In this document: in pieces, positions 612-62,882 of the stretch
Layout of the letters: every line of letters starts with the position of its first letter
Numbering within the stretch: the first letter of the stretch is position 1
From: Pristiophorus japonicus
Taxonomy: Eukaryota
Assembly (NCBI RefSeq): GCF_044704955.1
Contig: NC_091980.1
Coordinates: 130,634,001-130,698,000, forward strand
DNA: 64,000 bases
Reading direction: 5' to 3'
Translations under genes and position numbers: made by a program
Notes under the pieces: generated by a model
The model's input: the letters and a program-made list of their open reading frames with translations, nothing else
Told to the model about the DNA's origin: nothing
Databases searched by the model: none

Positions 612-2962
<2,351 letters not shown>

Positions 2963-7297: not shown

Positions 7298-7991
7298 ACT
7301 CTTTGCATCTCTCAATGGCACTTTTGGACTATCGATGTCACCACAATTCATACATTGATGAGTCACAATTCTACAAGTCATGTTGGGTTTTGCGTGCTGA
7401 TGAGTTTCACGGCTTCATGTTTCAGATAAAACAAATTCTTCAGCTCACTTGATGTGAAAAACTTTACAGATGCCCTTGTTTTAAGAATTACATAGAATTT
7501 ACAGCACAGAAAAAGGCCATTCATCCTGGCAAATTGCAGTGGTGAGTGGTCCTTCTTGAACCTAAAACGCATCTAGGATGAGGTGAGGAAACCAATGGGA
7601 CAAGATCGATTTAATTGTCTTTCAATCATGAGCATGGAGAGCGAAGTACTGAGAGGACTTGATTCACACACTGAGCCTCCTCCCAACTTCATTTAACCCT
7701 ATCAGCATATCCTGCCAATCCTTCCTCCCTCATGTGTTTATCCAGCTTCACCTTAAACACTGTCTATGCTTTTTGTCTCAACTATTCCTTTTGACAGCGA
7801 GTTAAAAATTCTGAACACTCTCTGAGTAAAGAAGTTTCTTTGAAGTCTCTCTTAGATTATTAATTCTAACTTTCTATATAATTCTATGGAGATCAGAACT
7901 GTGCGCAATACTCCAAGTGTTGTCTAGCCAAGGTTCTGTATAAACTTAACATGCTGCACAGGGATGTGGTTCTGTTCACCTCAACTGTGTT

Positions 7992-9336
7992 CTCCCTGTG
8001 GCCGAGGAGCTCCGTCCGGAGTCACAGTGTGTATTTCGTCCCCTACGGGTAACAACGGACATGATCTTTGTAGCACGCCAATTGCAGGAAAAATGCAGGG
8101 AGCAACGCCAGCCCTTATACATGGCATTTTTTGATCTTATAAAGGCCTTTGAGACTGTCGACCGTGAGGGCTTATGGAGCGTCCTCCCTCCATTTTGGAT
8201 ACCCCCAAAAGTTTATCAACATTCTTCGCCTGCTCCACGTCGACATGCATGCCGTGATCCTTATCAGCGGATTTGTTACAGACGATTCCACGTCCGAAGC
8301 TGGGTCAAACAGGGCTGCTTCATCGCTCCAAAGATTTTCTCAATCTTCCTCGCTGCCAACTCCACCTTACTGTCAACAAGCTTCCTGCTGGAGTGGAACT
8401 AAACTACAGAATCAGTGGGAAGCAGTTTAACCTATGCCCTCTCCAGACCAGTGCAAGACCACCCAAACCTCTGTCGTTGAACTGCAGTATGCGGACGACG
8501 CCTGCGTCTGCGCACATTCTGAGGCTGAACTCCAGGATTTAGTCGATGTCGTCACTGAGGCATATGAAATCATGGGCCTTGCACTTAACATCCATAAGGG
8601 AAAGTGCCTCCATCAGCCTGTCTTCGCCGCACAGCACGGCCCCCCGGACATCAAAATTCACGGCGTGGCCCTCGACAATGTGGACCACTTCCCATACCGC
8701 GGGAGCCTCCTGTCAACAAAGGCAGACATCGATGCGGAGATTCAATATCGCCTCCAGTGCGCCAGTGCAGCCTTCAGCTGCCTGAGGAAAGGAATGTTCG
8801 AAGACCAGGCCCTCAAACCTACCACCAAGCTCACGCTCTACAGGACTGTAGTAATACCCACCCTACTGTATGGATCAGAGGCATGGACGACTTACAGAAG
8901 GCACATCTCGTCGCTGGAGATATATCACCAAAGATGCCTCCGTAAGATGCTGTAAATTCCCTGGGAGGACAGATGCACCGACATCAGTGTCCTCGCGCAG
9001 GCTAACATCCCCAGCATTGAAGCACTAACCACATGAGATCAGCTTTTCTGGGCAGGCCACTTAGTCCACATGCCAGACATGAGACTCTCTAAGCAACTGC
9101 TCTGTGCGGAACTCTTTTATGGCAAACGAGCCAAAGTTAAGCAGCGGAAACGTTACAAGGACACCCTCAAAACCTCTCTGATGAAGTGCGACAGCACCAC
9201 TGATGCCTGGGAGACTCTGGCCGAAGTCCATCCTAGTTGGAAAAAGTGTATCCGGGAGGGCGTTGAGCTCTTCGAATCTCAACGCTGCGAGCGTGAAGAG
9301 GTCGGGCAGTGGAAGGAAGGTGTGGTAAATCAGTGA
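7992..9336 (+). mobile_element. RTE-clade LINE ORF remnant (5'-truncated; 3' end removed by a deletion)
   Basis: PESQCVFRP..TTDMIFVARQLQEKCREQ..LYMAFFDL.KAF, ELQYADD, LLYGSEAWT, MPDMRL.KQLL are RTE/BovB-type RT motifs; frameshifted. Confidence 0.87.
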
Positions 9337-10374
9337 ATAAAGCTATAATATGATCCAATTTATCTTAATTTGTATTTATTAACAAATTCTCTTTGTTTCT
9401 TGCAGCAGCTGTATCATCTGATTATTTTGATTTTTTTTTCCTGGGATCTTGAGCTTGATGAAGTTTATTTGGAATACATTCTGTACACAATGCAAGGAAT
9501 TCAGAATTTGTATCCTCATTCTAAATCACTGCATGGATTTTCCTTACCTTGCTGGTTCAATGGGTGATGTCATAAAAATAAATCTAGGCCATTTCGGAGG
9601 GATGTCAGGAAGTATTCTTTCCCACCAGTGTGGTGGAAATCTGAAACACTTTCTTTCTCAGCCATCCCTCACCTCCACGGGGAGGATGGGAAGAAAGTGT
9701 TATAAATGTTTCTGCTTCCCTCCTGTTCCTAGTATTTCTCTCCACTAATTTTAAGTACCAGTTTGTATCCTTCTGTCTTTCCTCTAACTTTTTGCAATCA
9801 TAAAGCAGATAGTTAATCATCAATTGTCTGTGCTCAGTGGACTCTCCCTTAACCCCTGTGACCTTCACCAAGCACCCTTAAATTCTGAGGGGTTCTCATA
9901 ACTTTTATTCTGTGGTCTCTGGTTCTCCTCTACAATGCTTTGATTTGTGTAGACTGTCAAATTAATGCTGCTTGTGGTAGTTTTAGTTCCTTGGCATGAA
10001 TGCAGCCAGTAAAACTCGGTTAGTTTTTCTTTTTTTTATATATGAATTCTGCATTGGGACTAGATCTAGTTTAGGCAGTTGCTTTTACTGCCCGTCAACT
10101 AGCCTGTACAAAATGTATTTGGGTTAATAAACAATTATTATTGGAGCATGCTACTGGTGACCAGGGTATAAATCTTGTGGCAATTCCTTCACCTAATTTC
10201 CAGAGCTACAATGAATATTGGGTGCCAAGATTCAGGTTCCAGTTTTAAGCATGTTCAATCAAAGCTGAATTGGTGATCGAGTGATGCAGCACAGGAGGCT
10301 ATTCAGTCCATTGTGCCTTGCTGAATGTTGGGTGGAGCGATACAACTGTTTCCATAGCCTACAAATTTTTCTAA

Positions 10375-11778
10375 ATCACGTAAGAGGATGAGACTGGGGA
10401 ATTAGTAATGGGCAACATAGAGATGGCAGAAAATCTGAACAAATATCTTGTATCTCTCTTTACAGTAGAGGACAGTAACAACATTCCAATGGTGGATAGT
10501 CAAGGGGCTATCGGGGGGAGGTACTTAATGCAATAACAATCACCTGAGGAAGTAGTACTCAGTAAGATAATTGGGCTCAATTATGTCCTGATGGCTTGCA
10601 TCCTCGGGCCTTGAGAAGCAGGGATTGTGGATGTATTGGTTATAATTTACCAAAATTACCTGGATTCTGGGGAGGTCCCAGCAGATTGGAAAGCTGCAAA
10701 TGTAATGCCCCATCCTTTTTTTTTAAATAAAAGAAACTTTTGACCAGTTAGCCTAATATCTGATAGGGAAAATGTTGGAGTCCATTATTAACATCGCAGG
10801 GACATTTGGATAAGCAAAATTTGATCAGGCAGAGTCGGCATGGATTTGTGAGGGGAAGTCGTGTTTGACAAATTTGCTGGAATTCTTTGAGGATGTAATG
10901 AACAGGGTGGATGAAAGTGAACCAGTGGCTGTTTTGTATTTGGACCTCCAGAAGGTATTTGAGAAGGTGCCACAAAAGATTATGGCACAAGATGAAAGTT
11001 CACAGGCTTTGGGGATAATATATTAGCATTGATAGAGGATTGGCTAAAGAACCGAGTCAGGATAAATGGTTCATTCTCTGGTTGGCAACCAGGATCTAGT
11101 AGAATGCTGCAAGGATCAGTGCTGGGACCCCAACTATTTACAATCTATATTACATTCTGTCCCTCCTTCCAAGTCGGTTACGTCGCCTAGTTTGTTCCTC
11201 CCAACTTTGTATCAGTAATGTGTGAGGAGAACACACTTCTGCAGAAGGACATAGGCAGGCTAAGTGAGTGGGCAAAAATTTGACTGTAGGAAAGTGAGGT
11301 CATGCACTTTAGCAGAACAAGAATCAAAGAGCAAATGTTTATTGAAATGGAGCAAGATTGCAAAGTGCCGCAGTACAGCAGGATCGGAGCGGAGGTGGGT
11401 GGGGTGTGGTGGGTGCCTCTACTCATTTGGAATTCAGAAGAATGAGGTGAACTTATTGAAGTGTATAAGATTGAGGGGGCTTGACTGGGTGGATACAGAG
11501 GATGTTTCCACTGATGGGGAAACTACAACTAGAGGGCATGATCTTAAAATAAGGGGCTGCCCATTTAGAACTGAAATATCTTGAGCGGTGTCAATCTGTG
11601 GAATTCACTGCCTGAGCTGTGGAAAGCTGAGACATTGAATAAATTTAAGACTGTAATACAGTTTCTTAAATGCTAAGGGGTTATGTGGGGATGAGTCCAT
11701 GATCAGATCAGCCATAATCTTAAATGGTGGAACAGGCTCTGAGCTGTGTGGTCTACTCCTGTTCATATTTCTCATGTT
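10375..11778 (+). mobile_element. Decayed CR1 LINE ORF2 and 3' end in B1 intron 1
   Basis: CR1-type segments (DWKAANV.P, QHGF..GKSCLTNLLEFFEDV, YLD.QK.F, GSVLGP, TRGHDLKIRG); internally deleted. Boundaries approximate. Confidence 0.78.
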
Positions 11779-12513
11779 AGGTTTCCCTATGGCTGGAGCT
11801 GAGATTATCCAATGTATTTACCAGGTTAATTGAGTAGGTTCTAGTTTCCATAAATATACATACAAGTTCAGTGAGACTGAGCTCTTGAAGCAAGAAAAAT
11901 GAGTTTGGCTTCATGTACAGTGCCCATGCTGATGGGTCTGCCATGCAATAATCAACTACTCTTCTGATCCCTCCGCAGTCCTTCTACTTTGACCGGGATG
12001 ATGTTGCCCTGCGTCACTTTGCTGAGTTCTTCAAGGAGCAGTCACACGAGGAACGTGAGCATGCTGAGAAACTGATGGAATTCCAGAATCGGCGTGGAGG
12101 CCGAATCATCTTGGCAGACATCAAGGTTTGGCTCCATAAACGAGGGGCCTTCTGTTTGGTTCCCCTTAGACTGATTGTTCACAATACATTGTAAAGGAGT
12201 TGGTTCCAATTCCACAGGAACCAGCAATTTGGACAAACTGGTCCATGCTGGTGATCAGGCTCCAGATGTCGTCCTCCCACCTTGCTTTATCCAGCAACAT
12301 ATCATTCTGTTCCTTTTTCCCTCATGTACTTATTTAGCTTCCCCTCAAATACATCTATGCTGTTCACCTCATAAATTTGACACCGTTAGTTGACTTAATG
12401 CAGTAATTCAATATTCTAACATATTGGTTCATGGTAACCTAAACTTCTGATTTCATTTTTTCATCCCTAATTTCCTTCAATACTGTCCTATTTACAAATG
12501 TGTTTTTACTGTT

Positions 12514-15500
12514 TGTACTATTACATATGTGCCATCAGAGGGCACTGCAGTCAGACTTGCAGGTTACCTGTACAGGTGTGCCAGGCGCAGTACAGAAGGC
12601 AGGTCACCAGGTATGATCCTCACCACCGAGAGTTCCATTATGTAAAGTCCTGTCCCCTCAGTACAGATTCACATGAGGCATGTGGTGAAGTCAAGGTCAC
12701 TCTGGACCTACACCTTTATTTCAAGCTCTGGAATGCTGCACTTGCCTGAGACCTGTCCTTGTATACCTGTCTCTTGCAAGTGCATCACTGGTGGTAAGGT
12801 ATGCTGGTGGTTACAGTTCAATCTTATTCGTCATGTATAGTATGTTATATATATTCACCCTCCCCCCAAGGTCTTGTTGTCTTTATAGGTTCAGTCTCAG
12901 GTGGTCTACGCTCTAGCATGGAGCGTCTGAGTTGTGGTTCAGTTGTTTGCCTTGGTGTCTGTTTGTTTTTCTTTGGGTGTGGTTGCTGGTATCTTGCCTG
13001 GGCTGTCTGTTGCGATTGCCCTTTCCTCAGGTTGTTCTCTCCATCTGTCCATCAGTTGTGATGCGAGTTCCACATTGTAGTCTGCCCCTCTGGTTCCACA
13101 GTGTTGTTGGTAAATCTAATTTTGACTTGGCCTACATGCCTCTGGCAGGTTTTGCCATTGTCCATTTGTACTACCAGTAGCCTGTTTCCTTCCTTGCCCG
13201 TTACTGTCCCTGCAAGCCATTTGGGACCCCTGCCATAGTTTAGTACAAACACTTTGTCCCCTATCTCATTCCATCTCCCCCTCGCATTTCTGTCATACTA
13301 CTCAATCAGCTTATGGCGCTTTGCCTCAACGATTTCATGCATGTCTGGGAGGATTAATGAGTGCCTTGTTTTTAAAGTCTTTAACATCAACAGTTGCACA
13401 GGGGGATCCCAGTCAATGAGTGCGGACGAGATCTGTATGCCAGCAGCAGTCGTGACAGGTGATCCTGTAGCATGCGACCTTGTATTTTAAGCATGCCTTG
13501 TTAAATGATTTGCACTGCTCTCCACCTGGCTGTTGGAGGCCGGCTTGATGTGATTTATGCCATGGTCAATTAAAAAATCTTGGAATTCTGTGCTGGTGAA
13601 GCACGGACCATTGTCACTGACCAATATGTCAGGGATTCCGTGCATTGCAAACGTAGTTGCAAGGTTCTCCAGTGGTGGAGGTTGTGCACGTGTTAAAAAT
13701 AGTGCACTCGATCCACTTTGAAAATGCATCTCCAACTACGAGGAACATTTTGGCCATGAATGGGCCTGCATAGTCGATGTGCACCCGCGACCACAGTTTG
13801 GTAGGCCAGGGCCCAGGGGCTCAGGAGACCCTCCCTGGGGGCATTGCTGAGCTGGGCACAAATGGTGCACCTTCGTACGCAGAGCTCCAAGTCCGCGTCA
13901 ACACCAGGCCACCAGATGTGGGATCTGGCTATGGCCTTCATAATGATCCCCGGGTGCTCGCAGTGGAGCTCCCAGACAAATGCCTCTCTGCCTCGCAGAG
14001 GCATGTCGACTCGGCTGCCCCACATCAGGCAGTCTGCTTGTAGTGATAGCTCATGCATGCGCCTGTGAAAGGGTTTAATTCCTCGGGGCAGTCATCGCGA
14101 GCCAGTCACCAGTTAGGACACATCTTTTTACGAAGGATAGCGTGGGGTCGCTGGCCGTCCAGGCTCTGATTTGGCGAGCCATCATTGGCGAACCTGTGGA
14201 CTCCAAGGCATTGATTGCCATGACTATCTTCGTCCTAGTCATCAGACCCTTCCGTGGTCGCCAGGGGTAGCCTGCTGATCGCGTCGGCACAGTTGTCTGT
14301 GTGCCTTATGGTATAGTCGTAGGACGCCAGCATGAGTGCCCACTGTTGAATTCTCACTGGGGCGTTAGCGTTTATTGCCTTGCTCTTGGATGTGAGGGGC
14401 TTGTGGTCGGTTTCTAACACGAACTTGGCTCCGAAAAGGTATAGGTGCATCTGTTTGACACTGTACACGCACGCGAGCGCCTCCTTCTCCACCATTCTGT
14501 ACCCGCGCTCCGCACGCGAAAGTGACCTGGAGGCATAAGCTATGGGTTGTAATTTGCCCGCACTATTGACATGTTGCAAAATGCACCCGACCCCATACGC
14601 TGACTCATCGCATGTGAGAACTAGCTTTTTAAATGGATCAAAGACTCAAAACACTGTTGGAACACAGAAGGTTGTGTGCCTTTATTGAAAGCGCATCCCT
14701 GCCACCCCCAAAACCAATCACACCCCTTCCTGAGTAGCACATGGAGAAGCTCCAGCAGCGTGCTCAAGTTCTGCATAAAGTTCCCAAAATAATTGAGTAG
14801 CCTGAGAAAGGCGTGCAGTTCTGGGGCCTGGGTGCTAGGCGAATTGCTTCTGTTTTGGGCACTGTTGGGCAGATTCCATCAGTGGCAAACCTTCTGCCCA
14901 AAAATTCTACCACTGGTGCGAGAAACAGGCACTTTGATTTCTTGACTCATCGGCAGACCTGATCCAACCGCTTTCGTACTTCCTCCAAATTATGGAGATG
15001 GGAGTCGGTGTCCATGCCCGTGATGAGTATGTCGTCTTGCAATACAACCGTCCCCGGGATGGATTTGAGTAGACTCCATGTTGCACTGGAATATGGCAGC
15101 TGCCGACCTGATACTGAATGGGCGTCGATTGTACATGAAAAGGCCTCTGTTAGTTGATGGTGAGTAGCTTGGATTCTTTGGTCAATTCTTGCGTCATATA
15201 TACAGATGTGAGCTCTAGTTTTGAGAAGTTTACCTGCAGCCAATGTGGCAAATAAGTCCTCCACTCTGGGCAGTGGGTACTGGTCCTGTAGGGAGACTCT
15301 GTTTATGGTAGATTTGTAGTCCCCACAGATTCGTACGGATCCATCAGGCTTCATGACTGGGACGATGGGACTTGCCCAGACGCTAAATTCCACAGGTGAT
15401 ATAATGCCTTCCTGCAGAAGCCTGTCTAGTTCGTGTTCAATCTTTTCCCTCATCACACAGGTTACAGCTCTGGCCTTGTGATGGACCGGTTGAGCATCCT

Positions 15501-17267
15501 GTGATGTAGATTTTGACTTTGGCCCCTTTGAAAGTGCCCACACCTGGCTGAGAGATGTTCAAATTGCTTTATAACTGTTGAGCAGGAGGTCCATCCCTCT
15601 AATGACATAGCATGGACATCATCCCATTTTCAGCTTAGTTTTGCCAGCCAGCTTCTCCCCAGCAGTGCTGGGGGGTCTCTGGGGACAATCCACAGGGGAA
15701 GTCTGTTCACTGTCCCTTTTTGTGTGACAGAGAGCATGGCGCTGCTGAGGACTAGTACGATTTCTTTGGTATAGGTCTTTAGTTTGGTGTCGACCCTTGA
15801 GTTTTGATCTGTCTTTTATGCGGCCACAGTTGTTCAAATTGTTGAGGTCCCATGAGAGATTGACTCGCTCCTGTATCCAGCTCCATGTTGATGGGTATAC
15901 CATTGAGTCAGACCCTCATCATTTATAGGTGGCGTCCTGTTGTAGGAGCAGCGGCCATTGATCATGTTGACCCGCTGTACATCGGTGTCCCGGATACTGT
16001 CCCCACCGTCTTCTGGTCCGCTTTCCGACTCATCCGATTTGTATACCAGCCGAGCTGTTTTTTGCATAGGTGGGCGAAATGCCCTGTATATTCACAGTTC
16101 CTGCAAACAGCCTGCAGAAATTGACACCCCCTTGATGAGTGCCCACCCCCACACCTCCAGCACAGACCGCTTCCATTGTTCCCAAAGAATGAGCTGTGTC
16201 TGGCTGATCTCTCGAGCTTCTCTCAGTTTGTAGTTGATTGCTCGCATTGTGGGTTGATGTGTGAATGTCCTTTTCTGTGGCCCTTGATGGCTTCTTGTAC
16301 CACTGCCTGCTGTCGAGAGCCTGTTCTCCCAGTTTGGTCTGTGGGGGAGCAGCTTGTTTAATGCTGTGAACTACTTGTTCTGATATTTTGTTAGTTGTCG
16401 TACCTGTATTGTAAATCAACCTTGTTTGTTCTTCTCCCACCAAGAATGTCTGCAACCAGTGCTGCTGCCTCTAAGGTCAAGTTCTTGGTCTCTGAGCTTT
16501 TGGAATATGCCTGCTTGGCCTATTCCTTCAATGAAAAGTCTCTCAGCATTTCTCTCCTCAGTTCATCGGAGAACTCCCAGACTAGCCAACCTCAAGTTCT
16601 GCCACAAAGTTGGGTCTGCTCTGGCCCACACAGCGTCTGTAGTTGTAGAACCTGTGTCTGGCCATGTGTCGGCTACTCGCCAGCTTCAGGTCGACTCTTA
16701 CCAGTGTGCTCAATTCTTCAAATGACTTGGGTGCCAGCAGATCCTTTATTAAAGCGTATGTTTTCAAGCCACAGCTGGTCAAGAGATGAGCTCTTCTCTT
16801 GTCTGCTTTGTCGTCTCCTAACCAGTCTTTTGTTACAAAGCTTTGCTGGAGCCTTTCTATCAATCCCTCCCAATTGTCTCCAGCATTGTACTTTTCATCT
16901 AATCCGTTGTTTGCCATTCTGTAATCCCGTAACTTGTCGCCACTGTAAAGTCCTGTCCCCTCAGTACAGATTCTCACAAAGCATGTAGTGAAGTCAAGGT
17001 CACTCTGGACCTGTACCTTTATTTCACAGCTCTGGAATGCTGCACTTGCCTGAGACCTGTCCTTGTATACCTGTGTCTTGCAAGTGCACACCTGGTGGTA
17101 AGGTATGCTGGTGGTTACAGGTCATATCTTATCAGTCATGTATAGTATGTTAGGATACAGTTATATATAATAATGTAAGATATATGACACATTAAATGAA
17201 CTAAGGTCACTACAGTTAAAGTACAATACATTGCCTCGTGGAGTCATTATCAGAGCATCTAAAGACA
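12514..17267 (+). mobile_element. Older Gypsy-type solo LTR (~200 bp; halves 12514-12640 and 17190-17267) split by the Gypsy provirus
   Basis: The joined halves read TGTACT...CCATCAGAGGGCAC...CATTAAA...TGCCTCGTG...AAGACA and share motifs with the inner LTR. No clear TSD. Confidence 0.55.
12641..17189 (-). mobile_element. Ty3/Gypsy LTR retrotransposon, decayed gag-pol, in B1 intron 2
   Basis: LTRs 12641-~12854 and 16944-17189, TSD CATTA, PBS TGGCGACAAG next to the 5' LTR. gag, RT ([31 protein letters not shown]), RNase H (LETDHKPL), integrase (HCEHPG...CTIC, VSDNGPCFTS); RT-RH-IN order. Confidence 0.93.
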
Positions 17268-17634
17268 AAAAAAAACTTAGTTTAATCTGACTTTCCTCTT
17301 CAGAAACCAGAGCAGGATGAGTGGAGCAATGGTCTGGAGGCCATGCAGAGAGCTCTGCAGATGGAGAAGAATGTGAACCAGAGTCTGCTGGATCTGCACA
17401 AACACTCCACTGGGAGCACTGACCCTCATGTAAGTTTCCCAATGCTTCAATGTGGGCTTTTGGTTAAGTTGCTGTCCTTGAACTTAATTTAAAAAGATCT
17501 CTGTGCCCAATAGCTTTGTGTTGGGTCTATTTCAGGGAAGATTTTGTAAGTGTCTGATCCCAGAACATTTTTGTAAAAGCAAGTTTTCATCTAAATGATG
17601 CAGTAATTCCATCAATTTCAATTGCACCACTTAA

Positions 17635-17892
<258 letters not shown>

Positions 17893-18469
17893 TGATGCTT
17901 CTGATCAGTACTCTTGTTTATACAATATGTGTGAGACTCTGTCCTACACAAAATGATGGATTTGTACAGGCTGAGACCTGGGCTCTTGATGTGAAATGTA
18001 ATCAACTGTAAATAAACTGTTCAATATTGGACTGGGTTTTGTCTCCTTGCAATTAGTGGTTGCTTATTTTCCATTTACTGTAACTTGTTTGCAGCACAAG
18101 TATTGCACTAGGCTATGCAACAATCATACATTGGCCTCCTGTGCTGTAACCACTCAGCTGGCTCTCCAAGAGCACTTCAGCTCGTCCTACTCCCTTGCAT
18201 TTTCCCTGTTGCCCTGCAATGTTTTTCCTTCATGTACTTGTTCAATCCTATGATTGAAAATGTCTTCGCCACCCTCTCGGACAGTGCAATCCAGATATTA
18301 ACCACTCATTGCATAAAAGTTTATCCTCATGTCAGCTGTGGTTCTTCTGCCAATTGTCTTAAATTTGTGTCTGCTGGTTCTCGTCCCTTCTACGAGTGTT
18401 AATAGTCCTATAATTTTGCTCGTTGCTGGGATAATTTCAATATATTGACAGTTATATTCATAAAAACAT

Positions 18470-21001: not shown

Positions 21002-21215
21002 CAGTACTGAGTGAATGCCGCACTGTCAGAGGGGCAGTACTGAGGGAGTGCCGCACTGTCAGAGGGGCAGTACTGAGGGAGCGCCGCACTGTCAGATGGG
21101 TAGGACTGAGTGAGCGCCGCACTGTCAGAGGGACAATACTCACAGGATTCTTCACTGTCGGAGGAGCAGCACTAAGGGATTGCCACACTGTCTGAAGGGC
21201 AGTACTGAGGGATTG
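21002..21215. repeat. 33-bp minisatellite (CAGTACTGAGGGAGTGCCGCACTGTCAGAGGGG), probably SINE-derived
   Basis: Units start at 21002, 21035, 21068, 21101 and 21134, then degenerate. Confidence 0.8.
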
Positions 21216-21748: not shown

Positions 21749-21802
21749 TCATCATTTCAATCAGATTTAAATATTCATCATTTCAATCAGATTTAAATAT
21801 TC
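21749..21802. repeat. Perfect 26-bp tandem duplication (also at ~53272-53325)
   Basis: TCATCATTTCAATCAGATTTAAATAT x2. Confidence 0.8.
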
Positions 21803-22689: not shown

Positions 22690-22931
22690 AAGGTAGTGAC
22701 ATCACCAAGACTGATCTTCCCCAGACTCCTCCTACAAATCCCCTCTCCTTTGTTAATTGGTGCCTCAATTCAGAGAAGATTCCTGATTGGCTCTGAGGGA
22801 TTGTCAATCATCATTGGTGATGTCATACCCTGTTTGAATGCAGCTGTTCCAATGTTATAAATACAGGAGCTTGTAGAAGACAGTGTGAGTTTCAGAACTG
22901 TGCAGAAGATAGTGAAATATAGAAAGTGAAG
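22690..22931 (+). promoter_or_regulatory. Proximal promoter and 5' leader of ferritin A2
   Basis: TATAAATA 22856-22863; inverted CCAAT boxes (ATTGG at ~22756, ~22786, ~22813); TGACATCA pair at 22697 and 22818. Conserved in A3. Confidence 0.65.
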
Positions 22932-25516
<2,585 letters not shown>

Positions 25517-29831: not shown

Positions 29832-30524
29832 ACTCTTTGCATCTCTCAATGGCACTTTTGGAGTATCGATGTCACCACAATTCATACGTTGATGAGTCAC
29901 AATTCTGCAAGTAATGTTGGGTTTTGCGTGCTGATGAGTTTCACGGCTTCATGTTTCAGATAAAACAAATTCTTCAGCTCACTCGATGTGAAAAACTTTA
30001 CAGATGCCCTTGTTTTAAGAATTACATAGAATTTACAGCACAGAAAAAGGCCATTCAGCCTGGCAAATTGCAGTGGTGAGCGGTCCTTCTTGAACGTAAA
30101 ATGTATCAAGGATGAGATGAGGAACCGAATGGGACAAGATCGATTTAATAGTCTTTGAATCATGAGCATGGAGAGCGAAGTACTGAGAGGACTTGACTTC
30201 GCACACTGAGCCTCCTCCCAACTTCATTTAACCCGATCAGCTTATCCTTCCAATCCTTCCTCCCTCATGTGTCCATCCAGCTTCCCCTTAATCGCGTATC
30301 TGCTTTTTGTCTCAACTATTCCTTTTGATAGCGAGTTAAACATTCTGAACACTCTCTGAGTAAAGAAGTTTCTTTGAAGTCTCTCTTAGATTATTAATTC
30401 TAACTTTCTATATAATTCTATGGAGATCAGAATTTGCGCAATACTCCAAGTGTTGTCTAGCCAAGGTTCTATATAAACTTAACATGCTGCACAGGGATGT
30501 GGTTCAGTTCACCTCAACTGTGTT

Positions 30525-32013
30525 CTCCCTGTGGCCGAGGAGCTCCGTCCGGAGTCACAGTGCGGATTTCGTCCCCTACGGGTAACAACGGACATGATCT
30601 TTGCAGCACGCCAATTGCAGGAAAATGCAGGGAGCAGCGCCAGCCTTTATACATGGCATTTTTCGATCTTATAAAGGCCTTTGAGACCGTCAACTGTGAG
30701 GGCTTCTGGAGCGTCCTACCTCCATTTTGGATAGCCCCAAAAGTTTGTCAACATCCTTCGCCTGCTCCACGTCGACATGCATGCCGTGATCCTTATCAGC
30801 GGATTTGTTACAGACCCATTCCACGTCTGAAGCGGGGTCAAACAGGGCTGCGTCATCGCTCCAACGCTTTGCTCAATCTTCCTCGCTGCCAACTCCACCT
30901 CACTGTCAACAAACTTCCTGCTGGAGTGGAACTAAACTACAGAATCAGTGGGAAGCAGTTTAACCTATGCCCTCTCCAGACCAGGTCCAAGACCACCCAA
31001 ACCTCTGTCGTTGAACTGCAGTATGCGGACGACGCCTGCGTCTGCGCACATTCTGAGGCTGAACTCCAAGATTTAGTCGATGTCGTCACTGAGGCATATG
31101 AAATCATGGGCCTTGCATTTAACATCCATAAGGGAAAGTGCCTCCATCAGCCTGTCTTCGCCGCACAGCATGGCCCCCCGGACATCAAGATTCACGGCGT
31201 GGCTCTCGACAATGTGGACCACTTCCCATACCGCGGGAGCCTCCTGTCAACAAAGGCAGACATCGATGCGGAGATTCAATATCGCCTCCAGTGCGCCAGT
31301 GCAGCCTTCGGCTGCCTGAGGAAAGGAGTGTTCGAAGACCAGGCCCTCAAACCTACCACCAAGCTCACGCTCTACAGGACTGTAGTAATACCCACCCTAC
31401 TGTATGGATCAGAGGCATGGACGACTTACAGAAGGCACATCTAGTCGCTGGAGATATATCACCAAAGATGCCTCCGTAAGATGCTGTAAATTCCCTGGGA
31501 GGACAGATGCACCAACATCAGTGTCCTCGCGCAGGCTAACATCCCCAGCATTGAAGCACTAACCACATGTGATCAGCTTTTCTGGGCAGGCCACTTAGTC
31601 CACATGCCAGACATGAGACTCCCGAAGCAACTGCTCTATGCGGAACTCCTTTATGGCAAACGAGCCAAAGTTAAGCAGCGGAAACGTTACAAGGACACCC
31701 TCAAAACCTCTCTGATGAAGTGCGACAGCACCACTGATGCCTGGGAGACCCTGGCCGAAGACCATCCTAGTTGGAAAAAGTGTATCCGGGAGGGCGTTGA
31801 GCTCTTCGAATCTCAACGCTGCGAGCGTGAAGAGGTCAGGCAGCGGAAGGAACGTGTGGTATATCAGTGACACCCATCCCCTTCCCCCGACGAATATCTG
31901 TCCCATCTGTGACAGGGTCTGTGGCTTTCATGTTGGACTGTTCAGCCACCAACGAACTCACTTTAGGAGTGAAAGCAAGTCTTCCTCGATGTCGAGTGAT
32001 TGTCTATGATGAT
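30525..32013 (+). mobile_element. RTE-clade LINE remnant with 3' end
   Basis: ELQYADD, LLYGSEAWT, C-terminal CPICDRVC...SHQRTH zinc finger, (GAT)n tail. Confidence 0.88.
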
Positions 32014-33019: not shown

Positions 33020-33271
33020 ATTGAGTTGTCAGCCAATGATGCTCATTCTTCAAAGATCTGACTGGCTCTGGGAGTCCATCTCCCTCCTTCCTTTACTTGA
33101 TTGGTGCTCTGAGAAGATGCAACTTCTGATTGGGTATTGATGACTGTCACTCATCATCAAGAATGCCACAACCTGGATTATCCCTCAGTATAAATATAGG
33201 TGTTTGAGATTGGCAAAATGTTACCTTTGTACTTCGACAAAGTTTTTACTTTGGAAAAATAAAATATTAAG
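33020..33271 (+). promoter_or_regulatory. Proximal promoter and 5' leader of ferritin B2
   Basis: TATAAATA 33189-33196; CCAAT at ~33033 and inverted CCAAT boxes (TGATTGG ~33098, CTGATTGG ~33126). Conserved in B3. Confidence 0.6.
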
Positions 33272-49495
<16,224 letters not shown>

Positions 49496-52574: not shown

Positions 52575-52740
52575 CACAACTGAGTGAGTGTCGCACTGTC
52601 GGAGGGGCAGTACTGAGGGGAGGCAGTACTGAGGGAGCGCCGCACTGTCAGAGGGACAATACTCACAGGATTCTGCACTATCGGAGGAGCAGCACTAAGG
52701 GATTGCCACACTGTCTGAAGGGCAGTACTGAGGGATTGTT
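52575..52740. repeat. Contracted copy of the 33-bp minisatellite
   Basis: CAGTACTGAGGGA...CACTGTC units, fewer than in unit 1. Confidence 0.7.
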
Positions 52741-52994: not shown

Positions 52995-53805
52995 AGAGGG
53001 GAGAGATGATGACGATTATTTTTACGCAGCGAGTTGTTGTGATCCGGAACGCACTGCCTGAAAGGGCGGTGGAATCAGATTCAACAGTAACTTTGAAGAG
53101 GGAATTGCATATATACTTGACAAAAGTTGCAGGGCTATGGGGAAGGAGCTGAGGAGTGGGACGAATTGGATCGCTCTTACAAAGTGCCTGCACAGGCACG
53201 ATGGGCCGAATGGCCTCTTTCTGTGCTGGTAGGATCTATGATGAGCCAGACAGTTAGAGCATATCTGAGCCTCATCATTTCAATCAGATTTAAATATTCA
53301 TCATTTCAATCAGATTTAAATATTCTTTCGAGTCATTGAATACCGACTGTAAAAGGACTCGTCTAACACATCAAATTGAGGGGCAGGAAAAGGCGAGCTG
53401 GTCCATCAAGCCTGCCCCAAAACATGCCGGAGCAAATCATAGAATGATAGAATGGTTACAGCATAGAGGGAGGCCATTCGGCCCGTCGAGCCCGTGCCTG
53501 CTCTCTTCAAGAGCATTTCAGCTAGTCCCACTCCCCCGCCCTTCCCCCGCAACCCTGTTATTAATTTTTCCTTCAGGTACTGATCCAATTCCTTTATGAA
53601 AGCCACGATTGAGTCAACCTCCACCACCCTCTCGGGCATTGCATTCCAGATCCCAACCACTCGCTGCGTAAACATGTCACCTTTGTTCTTTTGCCAGTCA
53701 CTTTAAATCTGTGTCCTCTGGTTCTCGACCCTTCCGCCAATGGGAACAGTTCCTGTCTATCGACTCTGTCCAGACACCTCATGATTTTGAATCCCTCTAT
53801 CAAAT
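52995..53805. mobile_element. Two CR1 3' ends (+ 52995-53240; - 53436-53805)
   Basis: Paralogs of 21470-21720 and 21913-22283. Confidence 0.75.
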
Positions 53806-54439
53806 GGAGATGTAGGTGACGATGTGTTCAGTAATGTTCACTCCCTCTCATTCTCACTCAATATAATGAATTTTACCAGGCATCATTCCATGAGAATAAA
53901 AATGACAGATCGTTGATGCCCCCATATAGCCAATCCTCAGACACATGCCCATTCTCTATATTCGAACTGGGGGCAGTTCACACCATCCACAGGATGGAAT
54001 TCCCATTCCACTGGCCAATGCTTGGTTTGTAAATGCATCAAGACGACTTGATTGCTTTGAATATTGTCTCAGTGCCACAGAAACTTGCAAGTAACAAACT
54101 TCGCCAGATTATGAAAAACCCCTTTGGCGAAAGTAGAAAATTATCATTTCATTCAAGTGAGCGCGTGAAACAACGGCACACTTTCAGATTTGAAGACGTT
54201 CAAGGAACCCAAAGGCACTGACATCACCAAGACTGATCTCCCCCAGCCCCCTCCCCTTTGTTAATTGGTGCCTCAATTCAGATAAGATTCCTGATTGGCT
54301 CTGAGGGATTGTCAATCATCATTGGTGATGTCATACCCTGTTTGAATGCAGCTGTTCCAATAGTATAAATACAGGAGCTTGTGCAAGACAGAGTGAGTTC
54401 CAGAACTGTGCAGAGGATAGTGAAATATAGATAGTGAAG

Positions 54440-57078
<2,639 letters not shown>

Positions 57079-59353: not shown

Positions 59354-60047
59354 ATTCTTTGCATCTCTCAATGGCACTTTTGGTGTTTCGATGTCACCAC
59401 AACTCGTACGTTGATGAGACACAATTCTACAAGTCATGTTGGGTTTTGCGTGCTGATGGGTTTGACGGCTTCATGTTTCAGACAAAACAAATTCTTCAGC
59501 TCACTCGATGTGAAAAACTTCACAGATGCCCTTGTTTTAAGAATTACATAGAATTTACAGCACAGAAAAAGGCCATTCAGCCTAGCAAATTGCAGTGGTG
59601 AGCGGTTCTTCTTGAACGTAAAACACATCAATGATGAGGTGAGGAACCGAATGAGAAAAGATCGATTTAATAGTCTTTCAATCATGAGCATGGAGAGCGA
59701 AGTACTGAGAGGACTTGACTTCACACATTGAGCCTCATCCCAACATCATTTAACCCTATCAGCATATCCTTCCAATCCTTCCTCCCGCAGGTGTTCATCT
59801 AGCTTCTCCTTAAACGCGTCTATGCTTTTTGTCTCAACTATTCCTATTGATAGCGAGTTAAACATTCTAAACACTCTCTGAGTAAAGAAGTTTCTTTTGA
59901 AGTCTCTCTTAGATTTTTAATTGTAACTTTCTGTATAACTCTATGGAAATCAGAACTTTGCACCATATACCAAGTGTTGTCTAGCCAAGGTGCTAAATAA
60001 ACTTACCATGCTGCACAGGGATGTGGTTCAGTTCACCTCAACCATGT

Positions 60048-61536
60048 TCTCCCTGTGGCCGAGGAGCTCCTCCCAGAGTCACAGTGCGTATTTCGTCCCC
60101 TACGGGTAACAACGGACATGATCTTTGCAGCACGCCAATTGCAGGAAAAATACAGGGAGCAGCGCCAACCCTTATACATGGCATTTTTCGATCTTATAAA
60201 GACCTTTGAGACTGTCGACCGTGAGGGTTTATGGAGCGTCCTCCCTCCATTTTGGATATCCCCAAAAGTTTGTCAACATCCTTCGCCTGCTCCACGTCGA
60301 CATGCATGCCGTGATCCTTATCAGTGGATTTGTTACAGACTCATTCCACATCCGAAGCGGGGTCAAACAGGGTTGCGTCATCGCTCCAAAGCTCTTCTCA
60401 ATCTTCCTCGCTGCCAACTCCACCTCACTGTCAACAAGCTTCCTGCTGGAGTGGAAATAATATACAGAATCAGTGGGAAGCAGTTTAACCTATGCCCTCT
60501 CCAGACCTGGTCCAAGACCACCCAAACCTATGTCGTTGAACTGCACTATGCGGACGACACCTGCGTCTGCGCACATTCTGAGGCTGAACTCCAGGATATC
60601 GTCGCTGTAGTCACTGTGGCATATGAAATCATCGGCCTTACACTTAACATCCAAAAGGGAAAGGTCCTCCACCAGCCTGTCTTCGCCGCACAGCACGGCC
60701 CCCAGACATCAAAATTCACGGCGTGGCCCTCGACAATGTGGACCACTTCCCATACCGCGGGTGCCTCCTGTCAACAAAGGCAGACATTGATGCGGAGATT
60801 CAATATCGCCTCCAGTGCGCCAGTGCAGCCTTTGGCTGCCTGAGGAAAGGAGTGTTCGAAGACCAGGCCCTCAAACCTACCACCAAGCTCACGCTCTATA
60901 GGGCTGTAGTAATACCACCCTACTGTATGGATCAGAGGCATGGACAACTTACAGAAGGCACATCCAGTTGCTGGAGCTATATCACCAAAGATGCCTCCGT
61001 AAGATCCTGCAAATTCCCTGTGAGGACAGACACACCGACATCAGTGTCCTAACGCTGGCAAACGTCCCCATCATTGAAGCACGAACCACATGCAATCAGC
61101 TTTGCTGGGCAGGCCATTTCGTCCACATGCCAGACATGAGACTCTCTAAGCAACTGCTCTATGCGGAACTCCTTTATGGCAAACGAGCCAAAGTTGAGCA
61201 GCGGAAACGTGACAAGGACACCCTCAAAACCTCTCTGATGAAGTGCGACAGCACCACTGACGCCTGGGAGACCCTGGCCGAAGACCATCCTCATTGGAAA
61301 AAGTGTATCCGGGAGGGCGTTGAGCTCTTCGAATCTCAATGCTGCGAGCGTGTAGAGGTCAGGCAGCGGAAGGAACGTGTGGTATATCAGTGCCACCCAC
61401 CCCCTTCCCCCGACGAATATCTGTCCCATTTGTGACAGGGTCTGTGGCTTTCATGTTGGACTGTTCAGCCACCAAAGAACTCACTTTAGGAGAGAAAGCA
61501 AGTCTTCCTCGATGCCGAGTGACTGCCTATGATGAT
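60048..61536 (+). mobile_element. RTE-clade LINE remnant, unit 3 copy
   Basis: AEELLPESQCVFRP, ELHYADD, MPDMRLSKQLLY, (GAT)n tail. Confidence 0.88.
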
Positions 61537-62529: not shown

Positions 62530-62780
62530 TTGAGATGTCAGCCAATGATGCTCATTCTTCAAAGATGTGATTGGCTCTGGGAGTCCATCTCCCTCCTCCC
62601 TTTACTTGATTGGTGCTCTGAGAAGATGCAACTTCTGATTGGGTATTGATGACTGTCACTCATCATCAAGAGTGCCACACCCAGGATTATCCCTCAGTAT
62701 AAATATTGGAGTTTGATATTAGTGAAATGTTATCTTTGTACTTCTAAAAAGTTTTTACTTTGGAAAAATAAAATATTAAG
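62530..62780 (+). promoter_or_regulatory. Proximal promoter and 5' leader of ferritin B3
   Basis: TATAAATA 62698-62705; several CCAAT/ATTGG boxes. Confidence 0.6.
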
Positions 62781-62882
62781 ATGGCTTCTCAAGTGTGTCA
62801 GAATTACCACAAGGACTGTGAGGATGCTGTCAACAAGCAGATCAACATGGAGCTCCATTCCTCCTATGTTTATCTCTCTATG
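62781..62882 (+). CDS. FTH1-like: Ferritin gene B3 exon 1 (gene continues past the window)
   Basis: [34 protein letters not shown] followed by the GTGAGT donor. Confidence 0.92.

Follow-up and report, generated by a model that had tools for sequence, protein, structure and literature searches.

The window, by which we mean the whole 64-kb stretch of DNA analyzed here, contains six ferritin copies, all located on the plus strand and arranged in the order A1-B1-A2-B2-A3-B3. The repeat unit measures 24–32 kb, corresponding to 12–16 kb per gene across the 64-kb window. The only complete and unbroken genes are A2 and B2, while A1 and B3 are cut off by the ends of the window and two of the six copies (A3 and B1) are broken. 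The coordinates of the genes and of their promoter and leader features are summarized in Table 1.

Table 1. Ferritin genes, promoter elements and leaders in the 64-kb window.
Feature	Position	Strand	Remarks
Ferritin A1, exons 2–4	612..2962	+	exon 1 and leader beyond the window
Ferritin B1, exons 2–4 only (11979–12125, 17304–17429, 17740–17895)	9336..17895	+	
A2 distal inverted CCAAT box (ATTGG)	22756..22760	+	100 nt before TATA; kept in B
A2 DECA-CCAAT composite, predicted PBX/PREP and NF-Y site	22786..22809	-	GAnnGAC, 12-nt spacer, CCAAT
A2 TATAAATA box	22856..22863	+	
A2 CAGTGT	22881..22886	+	at the predicted cap site; not an IRE loop
A2 predicted 5' UTR	22887..22931	+	45–50 nt, purine-rich, weakly structured (-4.6 kcal/mol), without IRE; start inferred
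Ferritin A2, four exons (22932–23033, 24464–24610, 24852–24977, 25361–25516)	22932..25516	+	
B2 DECA-CCAAT composite, 12-nt spacer	33129..33152	-	additional ATTGG at 33100
B2 TATA box (33189–33196) and leader	33189..33271	+	predicted UTR 52–57 nt, without CAG(T/A)G
Ferritin B2, exons 33272–33373, 43480–43626, 48904–49029, 49340–49495	33272..49495	+	
A3 promoter and leader	54294..54439	+	composite 54294–54317, TATA 54364–54371, without IRE
Ferritin A3, pseudogene as assembled	54440..57002	+	two frameshifts
B3 promoter, leader and exon 1	62638..62882	+	composite 62638–62661, TATA 62698–62705, leader without IRE
B3 exon 1	62781–62882	+	remaining exons beyond the window

Both A2 and B2 consist of four coding exons of 102, 147, 126 and 156 nt, separated by three introns. 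Gene A2 has an intact ORF of 531 bp encoding 176 amino acids, with an AATAAA signal 118 nt past the stop codon. Neither indels nor premature stop codons were found in the exons of B2, the first two introns of which are long and contain retroelements. Copy A3 has lost 2 nt in exon 1 (54440–54539) and 1 nt in exon 4 (56848–57002). In B1, a deletion of approximately 1.6 kb at 9336/9338, with a CAGTGA motif close to either end, took both the promoter and exon 1.

The encoded proteins were examined at the residues that bind or oxidize iron, using the numbering of a salmon ferritin paper (PMC4117605). Residues E24 and Y31 are kept in all four copies in which exon 1 is present, and E54, E58, E59, E61, H62, E104 and Q138 are kept in all five copies of exons 2–4. 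The vertebrate M-chain ferroxidase centre (E24, E58, E59, H62, E104 and Q138) is complete in all copies that carry the relevant exons. Among the L-type nucleation residues, E54 and E61 are found in 5/5 copies, and position 57 is in all five a histidine and not an acidic residue. Since the ferroxidase residues are kept and the ORF has a length of 531 bp, the chains appear to be M-like with an intact ferroxidase centre. For comparison, the ORFs of the salmon M1 and H chains are reported to be 531 bp and 534 bp long, respectively (PMC4117605). Position 164 is a valine in A1 and A2 and a glutamate in the other three copies.

The dN/dS ratios were estimated from the first 137 codons of exons 2–4, leaving out the six codons that start at the exon-4 indel of A3. 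The ratios were in the range of 0.18–0.46 for nine of the ten pairs and 1.0 for the A1/A2 pair, in which four changes are set against one. Every pair showed a higher ratio than the 0.056–0.118 reported for the salmon ferritin isoforms (PMC4117605). CpG decay was observed at the Arg codons of positions 46, 72, 73 and 76, where several replacements change Arg to Cys, His or Trp. We conclude that the array is undergoing birth-and-death evolution, in which copies come and go while purifying selection is relaxed.

It may be argued from these data that the array consists mostly of decaying duplicates with little or no expression, in which case a missing iron-responsive element (IRE) would be physiologically meaningless. 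The two frameshifts in A3, the loss of the promoter and exon 1 from B1, the several Arg-to-Cys/His/Trp changes at CpG codons and the raised dN/dS ratios are all in line with such decay, as is the finding that none of the promoters has a CpG island (observed/expected 0.25–0.40, as compared to 0.36 for the window). However, the ferroxidase residues are all retained in 5/5 copies, dN/dS is below 0.5 in 9/10 pairs, the splice sites and AATAAA signals are intact, and the promoter motifs have been retained across the old A/B split. We therefore regard general decay as quite unlikely.

The A and B types are approximately 96% alike at non-synonymous sites and show a synonymous divergence of 0.11–0.19, whereas their flanks and introns share only 45–65% identity. 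Because the exons are so much more alike than the introns and flanks, the comparison suggests that the A/B pair is old and that gene conversion has homogenized its coding exons.

Textbooks treat the IRE control of cytosolic ferritin as a constant among vertebrates. The segment 22856–22931 extends from the TATAAATA box of A2 through the last base before the ATG at 22932. Counting from the first T of the TATA box, the ATG follows at 76 nt in both A copies (A2 and A3) and at 83 nt in both B copies (B2 and B3); if the 8-nt box itself is left out, 68 nt remain for the A type and 75 nt for the B type. An earlier sequence-only reading had placed approximately 70–75 nt between TATA and ATG, which comes near to the distances measured from the end of the box.

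No match of any kind was obtained at the Rfam gathering level in the 64-kb window. With the threshold relaxed to E≤10, no IRE family was matched across the whole window, including the whole intergenic stretches between the copies, nor in the approximately 1.2 kb surrounding each leader, nor in the 51 nt around the CAGTGT of A2. In total, seven Rfam scans were run without a natural positive control and gave 0 IRE matches. A custom relaxed hairpin scan covering 2 kb before every ATG recovered 200/200 synthetic hairpins and identified no candidates between TATA and ATG in any of the four leaders. Outside the leaders, the same scan yielded 19 weak candidates, 8, 4, 6 and 1 for the respective ATGs, none closer than 204 nt to the ATG and all therefore upstream of the TATA box.

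The features expected of an IRE are a C14-G18 loop pair, an AGU triplet, U or C at position 19 (CAGUGH), a bulged C8 and an upper helix of five base pairs (PMC8466369). None of the 19 candidates from the relaxed scan displayed all five, and the best candidate with a canonical loop (A type, approximately 1.6 kb upstream) formed 4/5 upper and 0/4 lower pairs. We also searched for CAG(T/A)GN hexamers from the TATA box to the end of exon 1 in the four copies. A loop hexamer of the CAGUGH type is present in A2 alone (CAGTGT at 22881), where the bulge position is occupied by A and 2/5 stem pairs are formed. Copy A3 has CAGAGT at 54389, with G at the bulge position, and CAGAGG at 54411, with A at the bulge position, both with 1/5 stem pairs. 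Thus, the bulged C at position 8 is missing in A2 and A3, and the five-bp upper helix is not formed in either. In the minimum free energy fold of the A2 DNA stretch, the loop holds GAAGACAG and not CAGUGU. In B2 and B3, the stretch from TATA through exon 1 is free of CAG(T/A)GN hexamers. These results agree with the earlier statements that the CAGTGT of A2 has unpaired flanks and is replaced by CAGAGT in A3, and that the B leaders have no CAGTG.

A strict hairpin scan produced seven plus-strand matches, each with 4/5 pairs and none in any leader, and two matches with 5/5 pairs, both antisense in B intron 2. Four plus-strand matches with five pairs from the relaxed scan (21027, 21060, 23330 and 54835) were rejected, as they depend on a 3' bulge, carry G at position 19 and are located in a 33-bp repeat or in intron 1; the 33-bp repeat unit yields false IRE-like matches. 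The outline around the CAGTGT of A2 presumably resembles that of a ferritin IRE, with UGU located six bases 5' of the loop. The salmon ferritin IRE is reported to have a UGC bulge at the matching place (PMC4117605). A decayed IRE in the A leaders is considered unlikely, since Rfam gave no IRE match at E≤10 on the 51 nt, the B leaders show no trace of an IRE, and the site coincides with the predicted cap.

The four leaders represent two sequence types and not four independent cases (85% identity between A2 and A3 and 94% between B2 and B3 over 300 nt), and one of the four, the A3 leader, belongs to a frameshifted copy. Within this set, the Rfam scans and the relaxed hairpin scan confirmed the central claim of the sequence-only reading: none of the four visible ferritin leaders holds an IRE. 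The A and B leaders align weakly (z 2.4). Because the leaders of both types are short, of similar length and weakly alignable, loss of the IRE probably predates the duplication that gave rise to A and B.

The consequences of these findings depend on where the mRNA starts. As is well established, a cap site is located approximately 25–32 nt from a TATA box, and all four copies have a YR dinucleotide at 26 and at 31 nt from TATA. The candidate starts are 22882 or 22887 in A2 and 33215 or 33220 in B2, which gives predicted leaders of 45–50 nt for the A type and 52–57 nt for the B type. With such a start, the CAGTGT of A2 would coincide with the cap or precede it, leaving no space for a 5' arm. 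An ATG at 33218 in B2 and at 62727 in B3 overlaps the predicted cap; if transcription of these copies began at the upstream one of the two possible starts, a short uORF would begin 3 nt from the cap.

Alternatively, the mRNA could start further upstream or in a non-coding first exon, and thereby include an IRE, or a hairpin resembling one, that the scans missed. An AG dinucleotide lies directly 5' of the ATG in 4/4 copies and could serve this reading as an acceptor, the relaxed scan left its 19 weak candidates within 2 kb of the ATGs, and the start site is a prediction from sequence. However, the pyrimidine fraction upstream of all 34 AGs in the leaders is 0.24–0.65, as compared to 0.76–0.94 for 15 real acceptors, and no polypyrimidine tract precedes the ATG (fraction 0.24–0.29), which makes an upstream non-coding exon unlikely. 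None of the 19 candidates combined all five IRE features, the best one with a canonical loop lacked the lower stem entirely, and Rfam found no IRE in the 64 kb, whole intergenic stretches included. A hidden upstream IRE is in our judgement very unlikely. Taken together, the sequence favours the TATA box as a real promoter. The earlier reading had also proposed that the array escapes IRP control and that its output is set by transcription and gene dosage. The first part is supported insofar as a predicted start approximately 26–31 nt after TATA would imply escape from IRP control; "gene dosage" has to be discounted, as 2/6 copies are broken.

A comparison of A2 and B2 over the 148 nt ending at TATA gave an alignment with a z-score of 6.4. 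These 148 nt contain six exact A/B blocks of at least 6 nt, which include both ATTGG boxes and TATAAATA. No similarity was detected in the 280 nt further upstream of this block (z 0.0 and -1.3). The A/B similarity is higher still in introns 2 and 3 and in the 3' flank (z 11–16), so that conservation alone supports a promoter function but does not prove it. At least two inverted CCAAT boxes are located within 130 nt of TATA in 4/4 promoters. A DECA-CCAAT composite is present on the minus strand in 4/4 promoters and nowhere else in the 64 kb, as compared to 0.31 expected occurrences and to 0/100 shuffles reaching four, figures that apply to a pattern picked after the alignment had been seen and to four sites that descend from one.

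The spacer between GAnnGAC and CCAAT is 12 nt in 4/4 composites, which is inside the one-strand rule of 11 ± 1 bp. The canonical DECA-CCAAT spacer is given as 11, with 12 rated as tolerated from models. Such sites are described as targets of maternal factors in the zebrafish blastula, but also as not ovary-specific and often insufficient to drive expression, NF-Y and the TALE factors being ubiquitous. Among other elements, MRE-like motifs were found in 2/4 promoters and an E-box adjoins TATA in the A type only. In the predicted 3' UTRs, Musashi-like motifs were seen in 2/5 and Pumilio-like motifs in 3/5, all short enough to occur by chance. The background literature also included 10.64898/2026.02.16.706105, PMC6023610, PMC4112806, PMC8395497, PMC1488847 and PMC13701976.

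Large ferritin arrays have been described in sharks. The Greenland shark is reported to have 155 "FTL" and 179 "FTH1" copies, in clusters that share synteny with great white shark clusters and have an age of at least 250 My (bioRxiv 10.1101/2024.09.09.611499). The largest cluster contains 104 + 118 genes in approximately 4.1 Mb and has ovary-specific RNA (10.1101/2024.09.09.611499); the density works out at approximately 18 kb per gene and the two classes are near 1:1. The array in the window is alike in being a tandem array of two classes near 1:1, here in the form of an A/B alternation at 12–16 kb per gene. It is different in that FTL and FTH1 are the labels given to the classes of the shark clusters, while A and B both appear M-like, and the figure of 90% or more for residues shared with human orthologs given in the preprint may not fit the copies here (10.1101/2024.09.09.611499). 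Judged from the appearance of its protein and repeats, the DNA is presumably that of a cartilaginous fish. By analogy, the window probably belongs to a shark ovary ferritin cluster. The earlier suggestion that the array might suit iron loading of the oocyte thus gains outside support from the ovary-specific shark clusters, to which we assign the window by inference only.

The terms iron, IRE, responsive and UTR have 0 occurrences in the main text of the shark preprint (10.1101/2024.09.09.611499). Nothing on the IRE status of fish or shark ferritins was found in PMC9224801, PMC3944790, PMC13007054 and 10.1101/2020.05.01.071498, and the literature searched did not yield any claim that IREs are missing from shark ferritin clusters, most subscription papers being outside the search. 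Arrays and their ovary expression are already in print, and IRE-less ferritins are already known in invertebrates.

Reports of IRE-less M chains exist for some teleosts. In Atlantic salmon, the 5' IRE is kept in all three ferritin isoforms M1–M3 (PMC4117605), which means that IRE loss is not a general trait of M chains; the premise of the earlier reading, that fish M chains do not usually lose the IRE, thus holds for salmon. The genes described here resemble the salmon M chains in their four exons, 531-bp ORF, ferroxidase centre and E54/E61, but differ in having no IRE and in having His instead of an acidic residue at position 57. Outside the vertebrates, nearly all atypical ferritins of invertebrates, including sponge, are described as IRE-less; schistosomes have a yolk ferritin, and according to a cited title their ferritin mRNAs are without IREs. 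The array shares with the IRE-less invertebrate ferritins an mRNA that would be outside IRP control. Vertebrate mitochondrial ferritin is intronless and IRE-less. In contrast to invertebrate and mitochondrial ferritins, the genes in the window contain introns, encode conventional cytosolic chains of the vertebrate type and have kept their iron sites intact.

The IRE-less, M-like paralogs could also be transcription-controlled genes of a somatic stress or immune expansion, similar to fthl27 of the hadal snailfish, for which 14 mostly tandem copies, high expression in most tissues and protection against ROS have been reported (PMC10746142). The two systems are alike in that ferritin output is raised through tandem copy number, and different in that the snailfish expansion is recent, limited to 14 copies and expressed in most tissues. 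Ubiquitous NF-Y and TALE factors would suit a somatic role, as would the finding of a CPE in 0/5 predicted 3' UTRs. However, the ARE consensus was found in 0/4 of the 600-nt regions upstream of the TATA boxes, shark clusters of such size are reported to be ovary-specific (10.1101/2024.09.09.611499), and IREs are unmentioned in the main text of the snailfish paper (PMC10746142). A somatic array is thus unlikely, though worth keeping in mind.

The reading that we favour, and consider reasonably probable, is that the window belongs to a long tandem array of alternating A/B M-like genes, most likely an ancient shark ovary cluster, with IRE-less leaders, IRP-independent translation and an output set via transcription and working copies. 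Each gene would have a compact TATA promoter with predicted NF-Y (CCAAT) and PBX/PREP (DECA) sites and would be transcribed into an mRNA with a leader of 45–57 nt from the predicted start, in which no IRE is observed. At low iron, IRPs are described to repress ferritin translation via an IRE near the cap; with a leader lacking an IRE, IRP1/2 could presumably not block translation. The output would then be set by transcription and the number of working copies, and the growing oocyte might stock ferritin even when free iron is low. The stocked ferritin may serve the embryo as an iron reserve and mitigate oxidative damage, and an IRE-bearing somatic ferritin would be expected elsewhere in the genome. 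Ovaries of vertebrates are described as rich in ferritin mRNA, and ferritin has been found in amphibian and snail eggs.

A broader and more tentative hypothesis, plausible but short of what we would call probable, is that sharks have a separate egg ferritin system, at least 250 My old, consisting of hundreds of M-like genes without IREs under a TATA/NF-Y/TALE promoter. Copy number would here replace post-transcriptional iron sensing, as in histone and rRNA arrays, and maternal ferritin would be loaded into the very large yolky oocytes independently of IRPs. If true, such a system would be a vertebrate parallel to the yolk ferritins of invertebrates. Loss of IRE control in human L ferritin is reported to cause disease. 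The array would suit the large ovary-expressed shark ferritin clusters, if it is one of them, and an intact, intron-bearing and IRE-less array would offer a concrete reason for the unexplained ovary-specific expansion of shark ferritins. Shark ferritin copy number has been tied to longevity through ferroptosis, a link cited in the literature; if the cluster is both ovary-only and IRE-less, egg provisioning would be favoured over this link.

Several repeats and insertions were observed around the genes. Intron 1 of B2 contains an insertion of 7.3 kb (34157–41470) that is missing from B1 and B3 and is flanked by two LTR-like direct repeats of 560 bp, which are 89.6% alike. Its internal broken ORFs on the minus strand are envelope-like by eye, with a Pfam match for 0/3 fragments. 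A decayed LTR-retrotransposon pol region (RT/RNase H) is located in intron 2 of both B1 (13693–17121) and B2 (45032–48110), the latter with a Pfam match for 45751–46455. Tandem repeats with units of 33 bp and 26 bp are found upstream of A2 and A3 (21002–21212 and 52622–52738; 21749–21802 and 53272–53325). A decayed LINE reverse transcriptase lies just 5' of each B promoter position (7950–8955, 30461–31444 and 60001–61435) and has been copied with the unit.
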